IMG/VR virus record: IMGVR_UViG_2681813236_000005
Reading direction: 5' to 3' (one strand)
DNA: 9,396 nucleotides
Source of the DNA: a virus
Taxonomy: Duplodnaviria > Heunggongvirae > Uroviricota > Caudoviricetes
In this document: one piece after another, positions 1,608 through 9,396 of the stretch
How the letters are laid out: each line of letters opens with the position of its first letter
Numbering within the stretch: the first letter of the stretch is position 1
Notes under the pieces: model-generated
What the model was told of the DNA's origin: nothing
The model's database searches: none
What the model saw: only the letters and a program-made list of their open reading frames with translations
Position numbers and translations under genes: made by a program

Positions 1608-2305
1608 TGCAGGATATCCGGCAGGAAACACTGAATGAATGCACCCGTGCGGAGCAGTCGGCCAGCGTGGTGCTCTGGGAAATCGATCTGACAGAGGTCG
1701 GTGGAGAACGTTATTTTTTCTGTAATGAGCAGAACGAAAAAGGTGAGCCGGTCACCTGGCAGGGGCGACAGTATCAGCCGTATCCCATTCAGGGGAGCGG
1801 TTTTGAACTGAATGGCAAAGGCACCAGTACGCGCCCCACGCTGACGGTTTCTAACCTGTACGGTATGGTCACCGGGATGGCGGAAGATATGCAGAGTCTG
1901 GTCGGCGGAACGGTGGTCCGGCGTAAGGTTTACGCCCGTTTTCTGGATGCGGTGAACTTCGTCAACGGAAACAGAGACGCCGATCCGGAGCAGGAGGTGA
2001 TCAGCCGCTGGCGCATCGAGCAGTGCAGCGAACTGAGCGCGGTGAGTGCCTCCTTTGTACTGTCCACGCCGACGGAAACGGATGGCGCTGTTTTTCCGGG
2101 ACGTATCATGCTGGCCAACACCTGCACCTGGACCTATCGCGGTGATGAGTGCGGTTATCACGGTCCGGCAGTCGCGGATGAATATGACCAGCTGACGTCC
2201 GATATCACGAAGGATAAATGCAGCAAATGCCTGAGCGGCTGTAAGTTTCGCAATAACGTCGGCAACTTTGGCGGCTTCCTTTCCATTAACAAACTTTCGC
2301 AGTAA
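1607..2305 (+). CDS. L: Minor tail protein L (tail tip assembly; Cys-rich C-terminus)
   Basis: 232-aa ORF, the same length as lambda gpL. Its ATG overlaps the M stop (TGATG). A C-terminal cysteine cluster (CTWTYRGDEC...CSKCLSGC, nt 2123-2242) is present. Position between M and K matches lambda. Confidence 0.92.
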   Translation: MQDIRQETLNECTRAEQSASVVLWEIDLTEVGGERYFFCNEQNEKGEPVTWQGRQYQPYPIQGSGFELNGKGTSTRPTLTVSNLYGMVTGMAEDMQSLVGGTVVRRKVYARFLDAVNFVNGNRDADPEQEVISRWRIEQCSELSAVSASFVLSTPTETDGAVFPGRIMLANTCTWTYRGDECGYHGPAVADEYDQLTSDITKDKCSKCLSGCKFRNNVGNFGGFLSINKLSQ

Positions 2306-2309
2306 ACCC

Positions 2310-3053
2310 ATGACAGAAACAGAATCAGCGATTCTGGCGCACGCCCGGCGATGTGCGCCAGCGGAGTCGTGCGGCTTCGTGGTGAGAGCGCCGGAGGGGG
2401 AAAGATATTTTCCCTGCATGAATATTTCCGGTGAGCCGGAGGGTTATTTCCGGATGTCGCCGGAAGACTGGCTGCAGGCAGAAATGCAGGGTGAGATTGT
2501 GGCGCTGGTCCACAGCCACCCCGGTGGTCTGCCCTGGCTGAGTGAGGCCGACCGGCGGCTGCAGGTGCAGAGTGATTTGCCGTGGTGGCTGGTCTGCCTG
2601 GGCGTGATTCACAAGTTCCGCTGTGTGCCGTATCTCACCGGGCGGCGCTTTGAGCACGGAGTGACGGACTGTTACACGCTGTTCCGGGACGCTTACCATC
2701 TGGCGGGAATTGAGATGCCGGATTTTCATCGCGAGGATGACTGGTGGCGTCACGGTCAGAATCTCTATCTTGACAATATGGAGGCAACGGGTTTTTACCG
2801 TGTCGCACTGACAGAGGCGCAGCCTGGCGACGTGCTGCTGTGCTGCTTTGGTTCATCGGTGCCGAATCATGCCGCCATTTACTGCGGCGACGGCGAGCTG
2901 CTGCACCATATTCCTGAACAACTGAGTAAACGAGAGAGGTACACCGACAAATGGCAGCGACGCACACACTCCCTCTGGCGTCACCGGGCATGGCACGCAT
3001 CTGCCTTTACGGGGATTTGCAACGATTTGGCCGCCGCATCGACCTTCGTGTGA
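2310..3053 (+). CDS. K: Tail assembly protein K (JAB/MPN metalloprotease-like plus NlpC/P60 peptidase-like domains); start uncertain, alternative in-frame start at 2454
   Basis: The ORF carries a JAMM-type motif HSHPGGLPWLSEAD (nt 2511-2552) and an NlpC/P60-like Cys (DCYTLF, nt 2670-2672) with downstream His residues (nt 2868-2870, 2904-2909). The ATG at 2310 lies 4 nt after the L stop; the Met at 2454 would give a 199-aa product, matching the length I recall for the lambda K annotation. The Met at 2268 in the ORF track overlaps L and is unlikely to be the start. Confidence 0.85.
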   Translation: MTETESAILAHARRCAPAESCGFVVRAPEGERYFPCMNISGEPEGYFRMSPEDWLQAEMQGEIVALVHSHPGGLPWLSEADRRLQVQSDLPWWLVCLGVIHKFRCVPYLTGRRFEHGVTDCYTLFRDAYHLAGIEMPDFHREDDWWRHGQNLYLDNMEATGFYRVALTEAQPGDVLLCCFGSSVPNHAAIYCGDGELLHHIPEQLSKRERYTDKWQRRTHSLWRHRAWHASAFTGICNDLAAASTFV

Positions 3054-3598
3054 AAACGGGGGCTGAAGTCATCCGGGCGCTGGCCACACAGCTCCCGGCG
3101 TTTCGTCAGAAACTGAGCGATGGCTGGTATCAGATACGGATTGCCGGGCGTGATACAGGTGAAAACGAATTATCAGCCCGTCTGAATGAGCCGCTGGAAA
3201 ATGGTGCCGTGATCCACATCGTACCGCGTCTGGCGGGTGCTAAAAGTGGCGGTATTTTTCAGGCAGTGCTGGGGGCGGCGCTGATTGCGGTTGCATGGTG
3301 GAACCCTGTGGGCTGGCTGGGGGCCGCGGCTGTATCGGGTATGTATGCGGCAGGGGCCAGTATGATCCTGGGCGGTGTTGCACAGATGCTGGCCCCCAAA
3401 CCCAGAACCCCCCGAACACAGACAACGGATAACGGTAAGCAGAACACCTATTTCTCCTCACTGGATAACATGGTTGCCCAGGGCAATGTTCTGCCTGTTC
3501 TGTACGGTGAAATGCGCGTGGGGTCACGCGTGGTTTCTCAGGAGATCAGCACGGCAGACGAAGGGGACGGTGGTCAGGTTGTGGTGATTGGTCGCTGA
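2951..3598 (+). CDS. I: Tail assembly protein I (ubiquitin-like beta-grasp N-terminal domain, hydrophobic Gly/Ala-rich middle, conserved C-terminus)
   Basis: 215-aa ORF MAATHTLPLASPGMARICLYGDLQRFGRR...GDGGQVVVIGR resembling lambda gpI. It overlaps the 3' end of K by 103 nt in another frame, as in lambda. An SD-like AGAGAGG sits at 2933-2939. Confidence 0.9.
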   Translation: MAATHTLPLASPGMARICLYGDLQRFGRRIDLRVKTGAEVIRALATQLPAFRQKLSDGWYQIRIAGRDTGENELSARLNEPLENGAVIHIVPRLAGAKSGGIFQAVLGAALIAVAWWNPVGWLGAAAVSGMYAAGASMILGGVAQMLAPKPRTPRTQTTDNGKQNTYFSSLDNMVAQGNVLPVLYGEMRVGSRVVSQEISTADEGDGGQVVVIGR

Positions 3599-3658: not shown

Positions 3659-6600
3659 ATGGGTAAAGGCAGCAGTAAGGGGCATACCCCGCGCGAAGCG
3701 AAGGACAACCTGAAGTCCACGCAGTTGCTGAGTGTGATCGATGCCATCAGCGAAGGGCCGATTGAAGGTCCGGTGGATGGCTTAAAAAGCGTGCTGCTGA
3801 ACAGTACGCCAGTGCTGGACAGTGAGGGGAATACCAACATCGCCGGTGTCACGGTGGTGTTCCGGGCTGGTGAGCAGGAGCAGACTCCGCCGGAGGGATT
3901 TGAATCCTCCGGCTCCGAGACGGTGCTGGGTACGGAAGTGAAATATGACACGCCGATCACCCGCACCATTACGTCTGCAAACATCGACCGTCTGCGCTTT
4001 ACCTTCGGTGTACAGGCACTGGTGGAAACCACCTCAAAGGGTGACAGGAATCCGTCGGAAGTCCGCCTGCTGGTTCAGATACAACGTAACGGTGGCTGGG
4101 TGACGGAAAAAGACATCACCATTAAGGGCAAAACCACCTCGCAGTATCTGGCCTCGGTGGTGGTGGGTAACCTGCCGCCGCGCCCGTTTAATATCCGGAT
4201 GCGCAGGATGACGCCGGACAGCACCACAGACCAGCTGCAGAACAAAACGCTCTGGTCGTCATACACTGAAATCATCGATGTGAAACAGTGCTACCCGAAC
4301 ACGGCACTGGTCGGCGTACAGGTGGATTCGGAGCAGTTCGGCAGCCAGCAGGTGAGCCGTAATTATCATCTGCGCGGGCGTATTCTGCAGGTGCCGTCGA
4401 ACTATAACCCGCAGACGCGGCAATACAGCGGTATCTGGGACGGAACGTTTAAGCCAGCATACAGCAATAACATGGCCTGGTGTCTGTGGGATATGCTGAC
4501 CCATCCACGCTACGGCATGGGGAAACGTCTTGGTGCGGCGGATGTGGACAAATGGGCGCTGTATGTCATCGGCCAGTACTGCGACCAGTCAGTGCCGGAC
4601 GGCTTTGGCGGCACGGAGCCGCGCATCGCCTGTAATGCGTACCTGACCACACAGCGCAAGGCGTGGGATGTGCTCAGTGATTTCTGCTCGGCGATGCGCT
4701 GTATGCCGGTATGGAACGGGCAGACGCTGACGTTCGTGCAGGACCGACCGTCGGATAAGGTGTGGACCTATAACCGCAGTAATGTGGTGATGCCGGATGA
4801 TGGCGCGCCGTTCCGCTACAGCTTCAGCGCCCTGAAAGACCGCCATAATGCCGTTGAGGTGAACTGGATTGACCCGAACAACGGCTGGGAGACGGCGACA
4901 GAGCTTGTGGAGGATACGCAGGCCATTGCCCGTTACGGTCGTAACGTCACGAAGATGGATGCTTTTGGCTGTACCAGCCGGGGGCAGGCACACCGCGCCG
5001 GGCTGTGGCTGATTAAAACGGAACTGCTGGAAACGCAGACCGTGGATTTCAGCGTGGGCGCAGAAGGGCTTCGCCATGTGCCGGGCGATGTTATTGAAAT
5101 CTGCGATGATGACTATGCCGGTATCAGCACCGGTGGTCGCGTGCTGGCGGTGAACAGCCAGACCCGGACGCTGACGCTCGACCGTGAAATCACGCTGCCA
5201 TCCTCCGGCACCACGCTGATAAGCCTGGTTGACGGTGAGGGCAATCCGGTCAGCGTGGAGGTTCAGTCCGTCACCGACGGCGTGAAGGTAAAAGTGAGCC
5301 GTGTTCCTGACGGTGTTGCTGAATACAGCGTATGGGGGCTGAAGCTGCCGACGCTGCGCCAGCGACTGTTCCGCTGCGTGAGTATCCGTGAGAACGATGA
5401 CGGCACGTATGCCATCACCGCCGTGCAGCATGTGCCGGAAAAAGAGGCCATCGTGGATAACGGGGCGCACTTTGACGGCGACCAGAGTGGCACGGTGAAT
5501 GGTGTCACGCCGCCAGCGGTGCAGCACCTGACCGCAGAAGTCACTGCAGACAGCGGGGAATATCAGGTGCTGGCGCGCTGGGACACGCCGAAGGTGGTGA
5601 AGGGCGTGAGCTTCCTGCTTCGCCTGACCGTGGCAGCGGATGACGGCAGTGAGCGGCTGGTCAGCACGGCCCGGACGACGGAAACAACATACCGCTTCAG
5701 GCAGCTGGCGCTGGGGCGGTACACGCTGACAGTCCGGGCAGTAAATGCCTGGGGGCAGCAGGGAGACCCGGCGTCGGTATCGTTCCGGATTGCCGCACCG
5801 GCAGCACCGTCGCGGATTGAGCTGACACCGGGGTATTTTCAGATAACGGCGGTCCCGAAACTGGCTGTATATGACCCGACGGTGCAGTTTGAGTTCTGGT
5901 TCTCGGAAAAACGGATTGCGGATATCAGGCAGGTTGAAACCACAGCCCGCTATCTTGGCACGGCGCTGTACTGGATAGCTGCCAGTATCAATATCAGGCC
6001 GGGCCATGATTATTATTTTTACGTTCGCAGTGTGAACACAGTCGGCAAATCGGCATTCGTGGAGGCTGTTGGTCAGCCGAGTGATGATGCATCCGGCTAT
6101 CTGGATTTTTTCAAAGGCGAGATAGGAAAAACCCATCTGGCTCAGGAGCTGTGGACGCAGATTGATAACGGTCAGCTGGCGCCTGATCTGGCTGAAATCA
6201 GGACGTCCATTACGGATGTCAGCAATGAAATCACACAGACCGTCAATAAGAAACTGGAAGACCAGAGTGCAGCGATCCAGCAGATACAGAAGGTTCAGGT
6301 TGATACAAATAATAACCTGAACAGCATGTGGGCTGTGAAGCTGCAGCAGATGCAGGACGGACGCCTTTATATCGCGGGTATCGGTGCCGGTATTGAGAAC
6401 ACCCCTGACGGCATGCAGAGTCAGGTGCTGCTGGCGGCGGACAGGATTGCGATGGTTAATCCTGCGAATGGCAACACAAAACCGATGTTTGTTGGTCAGG
6501 GCGATCAGATATTCATGAACGACGTGTTCCTGAAGCGCCTGACGGCCCCCACCATTACCAGCGGCGGCAATCCTCCAGCCTTTTCCCTGACGCCGGACGG

Positions 6601-7141
6601 GCGGCTGACGGCGAAAAATGCCGATATCAGCGGTAATGTAAATGCGAACTCCGGAACACTCAACAACGTCACGATTAACCAGAACTGCCGGATTCTGGGA
6701 AAACTGTCTGCCAGCCAGATTGAAGGCGATATTGTCAAAACGGTGGGAAAAGCCTTTCCGAGAAACAGCAGTTATGCCAGCGGTACGATAACGGTCACTG
6801 TGTATGATGATCAGGCTTTTGACCGTCAGATAGTGATTCCACCCGTTCTGTTTCGCGGTGGTAAGCATGAAAACTTCAACAGCAACAACCAACAGTCATA
6901 CTGGTATTCAACCTGTAAGCTGCAGGTACTGAAGAACGGACAGGAAATCTTTCACCAACCTGCGACGGATGTCAGTCGGGTATTTTCATCAGTCATTGAT
7001 ATGCCTGCAGGACACGGGCATGTCACCCTGACTTTCAATGTCTCTTCATATGGCGCTAATAACTGGACGCCAACGAGCAGTATCAGTGACCTTCTTGTTG
7101 TCGTGATGAAGAAATCCACAGCTGGTATCAGTATCAGCTGA
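3659..7141 (+). CDS. J: Central tail fibre / host specificity protein J (tail tip, receptor binding)
   Basis: 1160-aa ORF starting [42 protein letters not shown], the lambda gpJ N-terminus as I recall it. The size is typical of gpJ-family proteins, it follows I as in lambda, and it contains FN3-like modules in the middle. The TGA stop at 7139-7141 lies 2 nt before the N run, so the CDS appears complete. Confidence 0.93.
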
Positions 7142-7143
7142 AT

Positions 7144-7536
7144 NNNNNNNNNNNNNNNNNNNNNNNNNNNNNNNNNNNNNNNNNNNNNNNNNNNNNNNNN
7201 NNNNNNNNNNNNNNNNNNNNNNNNNNNNNNNNNNNNNNNNNNNNNNNNNNNNNNNNNNNNNNNNNNNNNNNNNNNNNNNNNNNNNNNNNNNNNNNNNNNN
7301 NNNNNNNNNNNNNNNNNNNNNNNNNNNNNNNNNNNNNNNNNNNNNNNNNNNNNNNNNNNNNNNNNNNNNNNNNNNNNNNNNNNNNNNNNNNNNNNNNNNN
7401 NNNNNNNNNNNNNNNNNNNNNNNNNNNNNNNNNNNNNNNNNNNNNNNNNNNNNNNNNNNNNNNNNNNNNNNNNNNNNNNNNNNNNNNNNNNNNNNNNNNN
7501 NNNNNNNNNNNNNNNNNNNNNNNNNNNNNNNNNNNN
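7144..7536. other. Assembly gap (393 consecutive N); not biological sequence
   Basis: Uninterrupted run of n characters. Confidence 0.99.
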
Positions 7537-8430
7537 GCCGGACAGGCTGCGACGTCGGCTCAGGAGGCTTCTTCCGGCGCAGGAACGGCATCAGCAAAGG
7601 CCGCTGAGGCATCAAAAAGTGCTGCCGCTGCAGAGTCCTCAAAAAGCGCGGCGGCCACCAGTGCCGGTGCCGCGAAAACGTCAGAAACGAATGCGGCAGC
7701 GTCACAACAATCAGCCGCCACGTCTGCATCCACCGCGACCTCGAAAGCGTCAGAAGCTGCCACGTCAGCCAGGGATGCGGCGGCCTCAAAAGAGGCTGCA
7801 AAATCATCAGAAACGAGCGCAGCCTCGAGCGCCGGTAGCGCAGCTTCCTCGGCAACGGCGGCAGGAAATTCCGCGAAGGCGGCAAAGACGTCTGAGACGA
7901 ACGCCAGGTCTTCTGAAACGGCAGCGGAACAGAGTGCCTCCGCAGCAGCAGGCTCAGAAACTGCTGCTGCATCATCGTCCCGTGAGGCGTCAGTTAAAGC
8001 GGAGGAGGCCTCAGCCAGTGCCACCGCCGCCGGAAAATCGGCAGAAAGTGCCGCATCGTCCGCTTCAGCAGCCACAATGAAGGCTGGCGAAGCCACTGAA
8101 CAGGCCACTGCAGCAGCGAGGTCTGCTTCCGCAGCGAGGACATCCGAGACGAACGCGAAAGCGTCGGAAACCCGTGCAGAATCTTCAGAAACGGCTGCTG
8201 TATCGTCCGCCAGTTCGGCGGCGTCATCAGCATCATCGGCGTCAGCTTCAAAAGATGAGGCGGCAAGGCTGGCGTCAGAGGCGCAGGGCAGTGCCACGAC
8301 GGCATCCGCGAAGGCGACAGAGGCAGCTGGCAGTGCGACAGCGGCAGCACAGAGCAAAAGCACGGCAGAATCCGCGGCAACGCGCGCTGAGACTGCGGCA
8401 AAACGGGCGGAGGATATTGCATCTGCCGTG
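7537..8430 (+). repeat. Imperfect in-frame repeat tract encoding Ala/Ser/Thr-rich units (KTSETNA-containing, roughly 70-85 codons apart) within the tail-fibre shaft
   Basis: Related DNA segments recur at about 7672-7700, 7881-7910 and 8137-8165 (gcgaaaacgtcagaaacgaatgcg / gcaaagacgtctgagacgaacgcc / acatccgagacgaacgcgaaagcg). Composition is strongly biased (GCN/TCN/ACN codons), and all three frames on both strands are nearly stop-free here. Confidence 0.6.
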
Positions 8431-9396
8431 GCGCTTGAGGATGCGAGCACGACGAAAAAGGGGATAGTCCAGCTCAGCAGTGCAACTAACAGTACATCTG
8501 AAACACTTGCCGCGACACCAAAGGCCGTAAAAGCCGCCTGTGAGAATGCTGAGAAACGACTGCAGAAAGATAAGAACGGTGCGGATGTCCCCGACAAAGA
8601 CACCTTTACGAAAAATATTGGTGCCTGCCGTGCCTTCGGTGGGGCCGTAAGCACAACGACAGGAGACTGGACGACCGCACAGTTTATCGGGTGGCTGGAT
8701 TCTCAGGGCGCATTTAACCATCCATACTGGATGTGCAAGGGCTCCTGGTCTTACGGTAATAATAAAATCATCACGGATACGGGCTGCGGAAATATTCATC
8801 TCGCCGGCGCTGTCATTGAGGTGATGGGGATAAAGTCAGCGATGACGATCCGCATAACCACACCGACAACATCCAGCGGAAGTGGAACGGCGAATGCGCA
8901 GTTTACCTATATTAATCATGGTGATGGTTATTCCCCTGGCTGGCGTCGTGACTACAACACGAAAAACAAGCCACCGGCCTTTGCGCTGGGAAAAACCGGG
9001 GAAACGCTCGCCGATACAGATGCCGTCGCCTGGAACCTGGACAGTGGCGCTTATTGTGCACAGGATGGTGGCGCATCATCCTTAATTCTTCATTTTAATA
9101 CAGGGGAAGGCAGCTGCCCCGCGGTCCAGTTTCGGGTGAATTACCGGAATGGCGGGATATTTTACCGCTCCGCCCGTGATGGCTATGGCTTTGAGGCGGA
9201 CTGGGAGCGTCTGTTCACGACAACGGGCGGGACCCTGGAAGGTGCTGTGGGTATCGGTGCACAGAATACGCTGGGCGGCCATTCACTTGCGCTGGGGAGG
9301 GGCGACACAGGCCTGAAACAAAACGGCGACGGTAATCTTGATGTTTACGCCGGTAACGCACGTGTAATGCGCTTTACAAACGGCAGCATTCAGGTC
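7537..9396 (+). CDS. stf: Side tail fibre protein (lambda Stf-like), internal fragment: 5' end lost in the gap, 3' end beyond the window
   Basis: The frame starting at 7537 is open for all 620 codons to 9396. It was not reported in the ORF track because it has neither an in-window start nor a stop. Translation is Ala/Ser/Thr-rich with recurring KTSETNA units, then AEDIASAVALEDASTTKKGIVQLSSATNSTSETLAATPKAVK, a conserved phage tail-fibre motif, then a Cys/Gly/aromatic-containing distal domain. Position downstream of J matches the lambda stf locus. Confidence 0.85.

Follow-up and report, generated by a model that had tools for sequence, protein, structure and literature searches.

Organization of the locus

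The 9,396 nt of viral DNA analysed in this work (hereafter the window) come from a lambdoid prophage and carry its late tail module, in which a fibre gene is preceded by H, M, L, K, I and J. The tail tip attachment protein J (1160 aa; 3659..7141, plus strand), encoded directly upstream of the fibre gene, carries seven gpJ Pfam domains (E = 1e-31 to 1e-43), and gpJ is annotated in relatives as well. The K-like ORF listed at 2268-3053 of the window starts at a TTG overlapping the end of L, and the true start of this gene is probably a downstream ATG (MTETESAIL...). J is followed by a run of 393 N (7144..7536), past which the fibre frame stays open from 7537 to the end of the window, for 620 codons free of stops.

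Both flanks of the gap are matched at ~98% identity by three complete E. coli genomes, in which the run of N corresponds to 530 nt. In these relatives the fibre gene is a single intact ORF, 861 aa long in two of them and 854 aa in the third, which starts 58 nt past the stop codon of J and ends 4 nt before a Caudo_TAP gene (E = 2e-29), the tail-fibre assembly gene tfa. The window ends before tfa. The arrangement found in the relatives, with the fibre gene directly after J and the assembly gene next, is that of a lambda-like tail module. The 58-nt spacer between J and stf of the relatives hosts a terminator-like hairpin (GGGTGCCAGAAATGGCACCT, then a T-run; positions 3261-3290 of relative L001), which reads as N in the window.

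Residues 1-134 of the 861-aa relative belong to PF08400 ('Prophage tail fibre N-terminal'; E = 6e-73), and residues 1-94 match PDB 9e7m, the lambda StfN collar. In the window copy the region of this collar domain coincides with the run of N, and the domain can be read in the 98%-identical relative only. A Pfam search of the visible 620-aa fragment returned no family, the only Pfam domain of the protein falling in the gap. The intact ORF of the relatives, the PF08400 domain and the 9e7m match together identify the gene as a lambda-type side tail fibre gene (stf), in whose first half the tract described below resides.

An uninterrupted tract of heptads

The first-pass annotation of this DNA described some 300 codons past the gap as dominated by Ala, Ser, Thr, Glu and Lys, with recurring KTSETNA-type units. 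The composition is as described: in the fibre frame of 7537-8430 Ala accounts for 38% of the residues, Ser for 23%, Thr for 10%, and the five residues together for 86%. Pro is missing from the tract, and Gly does not exceed 4%. The units are likewise in place. The first KTSETNA (7675..7695, plus strand) spans two adjacent heptads (...KTS / ETNA...), and belongs to the DNA repeat family D1; a second KTSETNA (7885-7905) and a RSSETAA unit occupy 7885..7926, and a RTSETNA (8137-8157) and a KASETRA unit 8137..8178, all on the plus strand. Three sister units, at 7801, 7906 and 8158, accompany the KTSETNA-type motifs.

The regularity of the tract exceeds the three motifs first noted, and uninterrupted heptads run throughout. 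The visible part (7537..8448, plus strand) is made of 43 consecutive heptads in one register (7537-8439), plus three codons (to 8448). Comparison with relatives places the start of the tract inside the run of N, ~45 codons before 7537. Intact relatives carry 49-50 heptads, 49 of which correspond to residues 117-459 of the full-length relative, with neither stutter nor skip. The heptad consensus is A-[TS]-[AE]-A-[AS]-[TS]-S; position 3 is Ala in 47/49 heptads, position 0 is Ala in 34/49, and position 6 is Ser in 35/49. The z score of residue identity is 9.7 at lag 7, and 6.5-8 at each further multiple of 7 up to 56. In the power spectrum of Ala two peaks fall exactly at 3.5 and 7.0 residues, with a power of 35.0 and 14.9 (shuffle maximum 12.1). 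The internal periodicity anticipated by the earlier reading exists at the residue level, far beyond chance.

The tract is 87% identical to lambda at the nucleotide level over the first 425 nt. When the protein is aligned to lambda orf-401 (the N-terminal part of Stf), the two sequences are collinear, heptad for heptad, and separated by a single gap of exactly 105 aa, corresponding to 15 heptads. A PDB search gave solved matches for the collar and the distal parts of the fibre, and none for the tract. The prediction of the structure as a single chain by AF2 places residues 2-132, 142-230 and 238-304 in helix, leaving two short breaks, with a pLDDT of ~70-80 over most of the tract and <50 outside it. 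In the model the helix is folded back on itself, as tends to happen when a trimeric rod is predicted as a monomer.

DNA repeats and alternative reading frames

The DNA of the tract is barely repetitive, and is without repeats long enough to confuse an assembler. Tandem Repeats Finder, run for DNA REPETITIVENESS on 7400-9396 with a minimum score of 30, reported nothing, not a single row of head-to-tail repeats of high identity. Exact internal repeats do not exceed 12 nt in the window, or 14 nt in the full tract, in line with codon-shuffled sequences, whose longest repeats average 12.2 nt. The DNA repeat families found in the tract are only 65-76% identical, and DNA identity at lag 21 is 0.47 vs a baseline of ~0.37. 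The notion that the region is repetitive at the DNA level has therefore to be abandoned.

The region had also been reported as stop-free in all frames. Within 7537-8430 the fibre frame (+0) has no stops, and frames +1, -1 and -2 have one each, but frames +2 and -0 carry 9 and 23, respectively. Two long ORFs are found besides the fibre frame, an antisense ORF of 364 aa in frame -1 (7560..8654, minus strand), and an Arg/Pro/Gln-rich ORF in frame +1 relative to the fibre (7619..8080, plus strand; 38 R, 31 P and 26 Q in 153 aa). Shuffling whole codons, by which the repeat structure is removed, leaves on average 1.5 stops in frame +1 and 1.3 in frame -1. Permuting synonymous codons, by which the protein is kept, gives 1.8 and 0.9 expected stops, respectively, one being observed in each frame. 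The two frames are nearly open because the protein uses almost no codons with T at position 2 and has no Tyr. Since the shuffled sequences remain nearly open, both the Arg-rich and the antisense ORF are expected by-products of composition. The ORFs pointed out by the first-pass annotation do exist, and are spurious as it maintained, but composition and codon junctions, rather than repeats, are their cause.

Frame -2 has one stop vs 7.8 expected by synonymous permutation (P ~0.001). This frame is nearly open because NCT|A junctions are avoided, which is a general codon-context bias: NCT codons before an A-starting codon number 0/31 vs 43/168 in the tract, and 4/61 vs 117/538 in the other genes of the window (p = 0.004). 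The triplet CTA is avoided across codon junctions, and NC[ACG] codons take an A-starting neighbour in ~22-26% of the cases.

In 68 distinct related tracts the sense frame is never stopped, while stops number 1-3 in frame +1, 0-3 in frame -1 and 0-5 in frame -2. The antisense frame -1 is broken by 1-3 stops in 66 of the 68, and the length of the antisense ORF shifts from one relative to another (364, 482, 357, 206 aa). The GenBank record of lambda (J02459, L004) still lists inside orf-401 an antisense 'orf206b' (20147..20767, minus strand). The register of orf206b is exactly that of the 364-aa antisense ORF of the window, and orf206b is likewise a by-product of composition.

Length of the rod among relatives

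Rod length was measured as the distance from the end of the collar (FELMVEE) to KGIVQLS, both in 119 close cluster representatives and in 69 IMG/VR loci, two samples of best-scoring matches that are biased to this class (the homologues listed are the best 120 of ~8000). The distance is 360 aa in 105 of the 119 representatives, 353 aa in 10 (-7), 346 aa in one (-14) and 357 aa in three (-3, an ASS unit). The viral loci measure 360 aa in 63 cases out of 69. The remainder consists of three loci of 255 aa (-105, the lambda class), and single loci of 248 aa (-112, in a truncated ORF), 364 aa (+4, TSAS being duplicated) and 369 aa (+9, SKSAAAAES being duplicated). Most length variants are whole heptads; at the 21-nt deletion, direct repeats of GGCAGC lie on both sides.

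A broader sample included 61 collar-bearing representatives at 50% identity, scanned with a heptad profile trained on the tract of the window. Rods range in this sample from 0 to 329 aa, and fall into classes near 329, 272-281, 217-224, 150-178, 100-120 and 21-75 aa, figures to be read bearing in mind that some proteins are fragments, and that the profile may miss heptads of other types. Among the 50 representatives with a detected tract, 48 stay in one register throughout. The in-frame variation of length envisaged by the first-pass annotation exists and is large across the family, but is rare among close relatives, as only 14/119 and 6/69 sequences differ, and the tract is not hypervariable. 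Rod length is nearly fixed among close relatives and stepwise variable across the family, and the tract is not a contingency-type repeat.

The distal half and the mosaic structure of the gene

The rod is followed by a conserved motif, KKGIVQLSSATNSTSETLAATPKAVKAA (8455..8538, plus strand), which also occurs in lambda Stf and in the S fibre of Mu; in the full-length relative, residues 443-526 match PDB 5yvq (Mu S). The distal receptor-binding half, of the Mu S/S' type, begins at 8545 (8545..9396, plus strand) and runs past the end of the window within a protein that in relatives is 861 aa long; residues 495-733 match PDB 8ju3 ('Tail fiber protein S, S''; E = 4e-133). The parts of the gene differ in their spread among 5426 complete E. 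coli genomes. Any match to the collar-containing equivalent of the gap is found in 4857 of them, and any match to the rod in 3969; the distal part is covered to at least 80% in 33 genomes, and gives shorter or weaker matches in 701.

The fibre gene is a typical mosaic. In six IMG/VR fibres (L008, L011, L015, L023, L049 and L074) the shared rod stops at the end of a KTSETNA unit, giving way to a different heptad tract, of the SETNAKN type, and to unrelated distal domains. SETNA-type units are sites at which other prophage fibres have had the shaft swapped or deleted, which suggests that KTSETNA-type units are recombination joints between fibres. In RefSeq the fibre gene of the relatives is annotated by PGAP as a pseudogene of 1563 nt ('missing C-terminus'), and ~1 kb is left unannotated (L001 3301-5886; also L002 and L003). 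The gene is intact (861 or 854 aa), and the call is probably false, and due to mosaicism.

Discussion

The tract is a real and highly regular feature, and an already known one, the proximal rod of the lambda Stf/StfR family. The extended fibrous shaft proposed by the first-pass annotation is borne out, and can be defined more precisely as an alpha-helical heptad coiled coil orthologous to a domain of Ur-lambda gpStf. Unbroken heptads with small residues in the core are the signature of alpha-helical coiled coils. The heptad register, the predicted helix, the orthology to lambda Stf and the gene context, all documented above, make it very likely that the tract is the proximal rod of a lambda-type side tail fibre (Stf/StfR), folded as a parallel, three-stranded alpha-helical coiled coil of ~50 heptads. 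Small Ala (and Ser) residues would form the core of the rod. Ala/Ser cores are unusual among coiled coils, and the core here is not the canonical one of Leu, Ile and Val: one core position is Ala in 47/49 heptads, and the other is either Ala in 34/49, with E or K in 12, or Ser in 35/49. The presence of E or K at the presumed 'a' position in 12/49 heptads, along with the small-residue core, makes the assignment of core positions uncertain.

The trimeric state, the collar and the geometry of the hinge are borrowed from the literature on Ur-lambda. According to this scheme, a short linker would join the rod to the N-terminal collar domain, the clamp that would fasten the fibre to the tail where gpV and gpM meet. 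The rod would work as a stiff spacer, and keep both the hinge and the distal, receptor-binding half (of the Mu S/S' type) ~50 nm away from the axis of the tail; we infer from this spacer function that the fibre may reach the cell surface earlier than J. The rise of a coiled coil is ~0.148 nm per residue. At this value the 304 visible residues would span ~45 nm, and the full rod of ~350-360 residues ~52 nm, with the 15 extra heptads making it ~15.5 nm longer than the rod of lambda.

The very low complexity of the sequence (86% A/S/T/E/K) and the missing Pfam match of the visible fragment could alternatively suit an intrinsically disordered Ala/Ser/Thr linker, or a shaft of beta structure. Either is extremely unlikely, because a strict 7.0/3.5 periodicity is maintained in one register over ~350 residues, Pro is absent and Gly scarce, AF2 predicts helix, and the orthologous segment of lambda has been seen as a trimeric bundle and rod. 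A different reading of the tract, derived from the first-pass annotation, focuses on the DNA, and assumes that quasi-tandem repeats keep all frames open, break the assembly at the run of N, and drive frequent changes in repeat number. The weak 21-nt periodicity, the short and degenerate repeat families, and some indels resting on micro-repeats (the 21-nt deletion with GGCAGC flanks, the 9-aa SKSAAAAES and the 4-aa TSAS duplications) are what one would expect. Yet, no array was detected; the longest exact repeats, 12-14 nt, do not exceed those of codon-shuffled sequences, and are shorter than the k-mers of typical short-read assemblers; two frames are interrupted by many stops, and the others stay nearly open after permutations that destroy the repeats; tract length is identical in most cluster representatives and viral loci; and the sequence equivalent to the gap lies mostly upstream of the tract. 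The repeat-based explanation is very improbable, and is to be considered largely refuted already. Similarly, it might be supposed that one of the long alternative frames, either the antisense ORF 7560..8654 or frame -2, is a real overlapping gene, since frame -2 has far fewer stops than expected, and the lambda record annotates orf206b in the -1 register. The chances of such a gene are minimal: other genes of the window avoid NCT|A junctions just as much, an open frame -1 is what the protein and its codons lead one to expect, and both frames are variously broken in the 68 relatives, with ORF ends that shift. An overlapping gene in frame -2 was rejected, given the NCT|A avoidance in other genes and the breaks found in relatives. 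Variability by codon position is unable to separate the sense from the -1 antisense frame, as antisense wobble positions coincide with sense wobble positions, and conservation accordingly provides no independent support to the antisense ORF.

The cause of the gap deserves separate comment. The tract had been held responsible, through its repetitiveness, for the gap and for possible misassembly. The 530 nt that replace the run of N in the relatives are made mostly of other sequences, the 58-nt J-stf spacer, the stf start codon and the collar domain (PF08400), and reach only the first ~45 codons of the tract, so that the repetitiveness of the tract does not account for the gap. With moderate confidence, we favour the idea that the 5' segment of stf, being common to several lambdoid prophages, collapsed in a short-read assembly, and that the 393 N are a scaffolder's estimate of the length missing at the break. 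The 530-nt equivalent occurs in 4857/5426 complete E. coli genomes, where the median number of places is 2 and the maximum 14. Its flanks are rarer, as the 3' end of J together with the fibre was found in three genomes (at least 80% coverage), and the distal part in 33. Compared with 62 other prophage fibres, the gap-equivalent has an identity of 0.88-0.98, a value that falls to 0.80 in the first 60-nt interval wholly past the gap. The run of N is 137 nt shorter than the 530 nt of the relatives, as expected of an estimated scaffold gap. On the other hand, the copies differ by 5-10%, and good assemblers may resolve them. It is also possible that the Ns correspond to a stretch deliberately masked by the data provider. 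A multi-copy segment bordered by rare flanks, along with the drop of identity past the gap, suggests that the collapse of copies shared by prophages would explain the gap better than the heptads.

The occurrence of length classes quantised by heptads may be taken as a sign that such classes are made by recombination between SETNA-type units, possibly as an adaptive setting of the 'reach' of the fibre. The idea is speculative, and we regard it as unlikely. If true, the side fibre would be matched to the thickness of the O-antigen or of the capsule, independently of the swappable receptor-binding tip.

The work adds little new biology, and its value is mainly practical. What is mildly new is the exact 15-heptad difference from lambda, the existence of heptad-quantised variants, and the likely false pseudogene call by PGAP. 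Annotators should be aware that long false ORFs arise from the tract on either strand, and that one of them still survives in the lambda record (orf206b). An in-register rod and natural variants made of whole heptads suggest that rod length could be tuned by heptads in lambda delivery particles carrying chimeric Stf. The assembly gap, in turn, is probably better blamed on sequence shared by prophages than on the heptads.

Comparison with known systems

Alanine-zipper trimeric coiled coils, such as the core variants of Lpp-56, carry Ala in the core positions of the heptad, and form a parallel trimer. The tract described here is unlike them in extending for ~50 heptads, and in having a surface rich in Ser and Thr. 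Discontinuities of coiled coils have been classified as stutters, stammers and nonads (Hartmann et al. 2016, PMC4786415). Set in this scheme, the -3 aa and +4 aa variants of the rod are both equivalent to stutters, and the +9 aa variant to a 2-residue insertion; the reference tract, in contrast, has no discontinuity.

The closest structural counterpart is the side fibre of Ur-lambda. In gpStf of Ur-lambda the orthologue of the tract is the proximal trimeric coiled-coil domain, and a further orthologue is the tract annotated in E. coli stfR genes. Four trimeric Stf fibres are present in the Ur-lambda virion, anchored at the gpV/gpM junction, and gpStf is organized in a collar (residues 1-91), a linker (92-101), a proximal coiled coil (102-393) and a hinge (394-422) (Yu et al. 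2025, PMC12617516). Twelve collar domains, their 10-residue linkers and the trimeric bundle formed by the proximal ~120 residues were resolved, while the proximal coiled coil, the hinge and the distal part were modelled by AF3 plus cryo-ET, the full-length Stf model obtained by AF3 being in disagreement with cryo-ET (Yu et al. 2025, PMC12617516).

The resemblance to lambda Stf involves the collar domain (in relatives), the heptad consensus, the KTSETNA units, the distal KGIVQLSSATNSTSETLAATPKAVK motif and the position after J, and the aligned sequences are nearly identical over most heptads. Unlike in lambda, the rod of the window is longer by 105 aa (15 heptads), and the distal half is of the Mu S/S' type, whereas that of lambda is a gp37-like OmpC binder. 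The lom gene, which in lambda separates J from stf, is absent between J and stf of the relatives.

The resemblance extends to stfR, which in K-12 is the side tail fibre gene of the Rac prophage. The stfR genes of complete E. coli genomes have a tract of the same length, and match that of the window over 894 ungapped nt at 89-90% identity. Tract length is likewise shared by the many proteins annotated 'prophage tail fiber N-terminal domain-containing protein', the anchor distance being 360 aa in 105/119 cluster representatives. Fibres of the stfR type differ, in turn, in their distal receptor-binding parts, and total lengths vary from 652 to 1258 aa.
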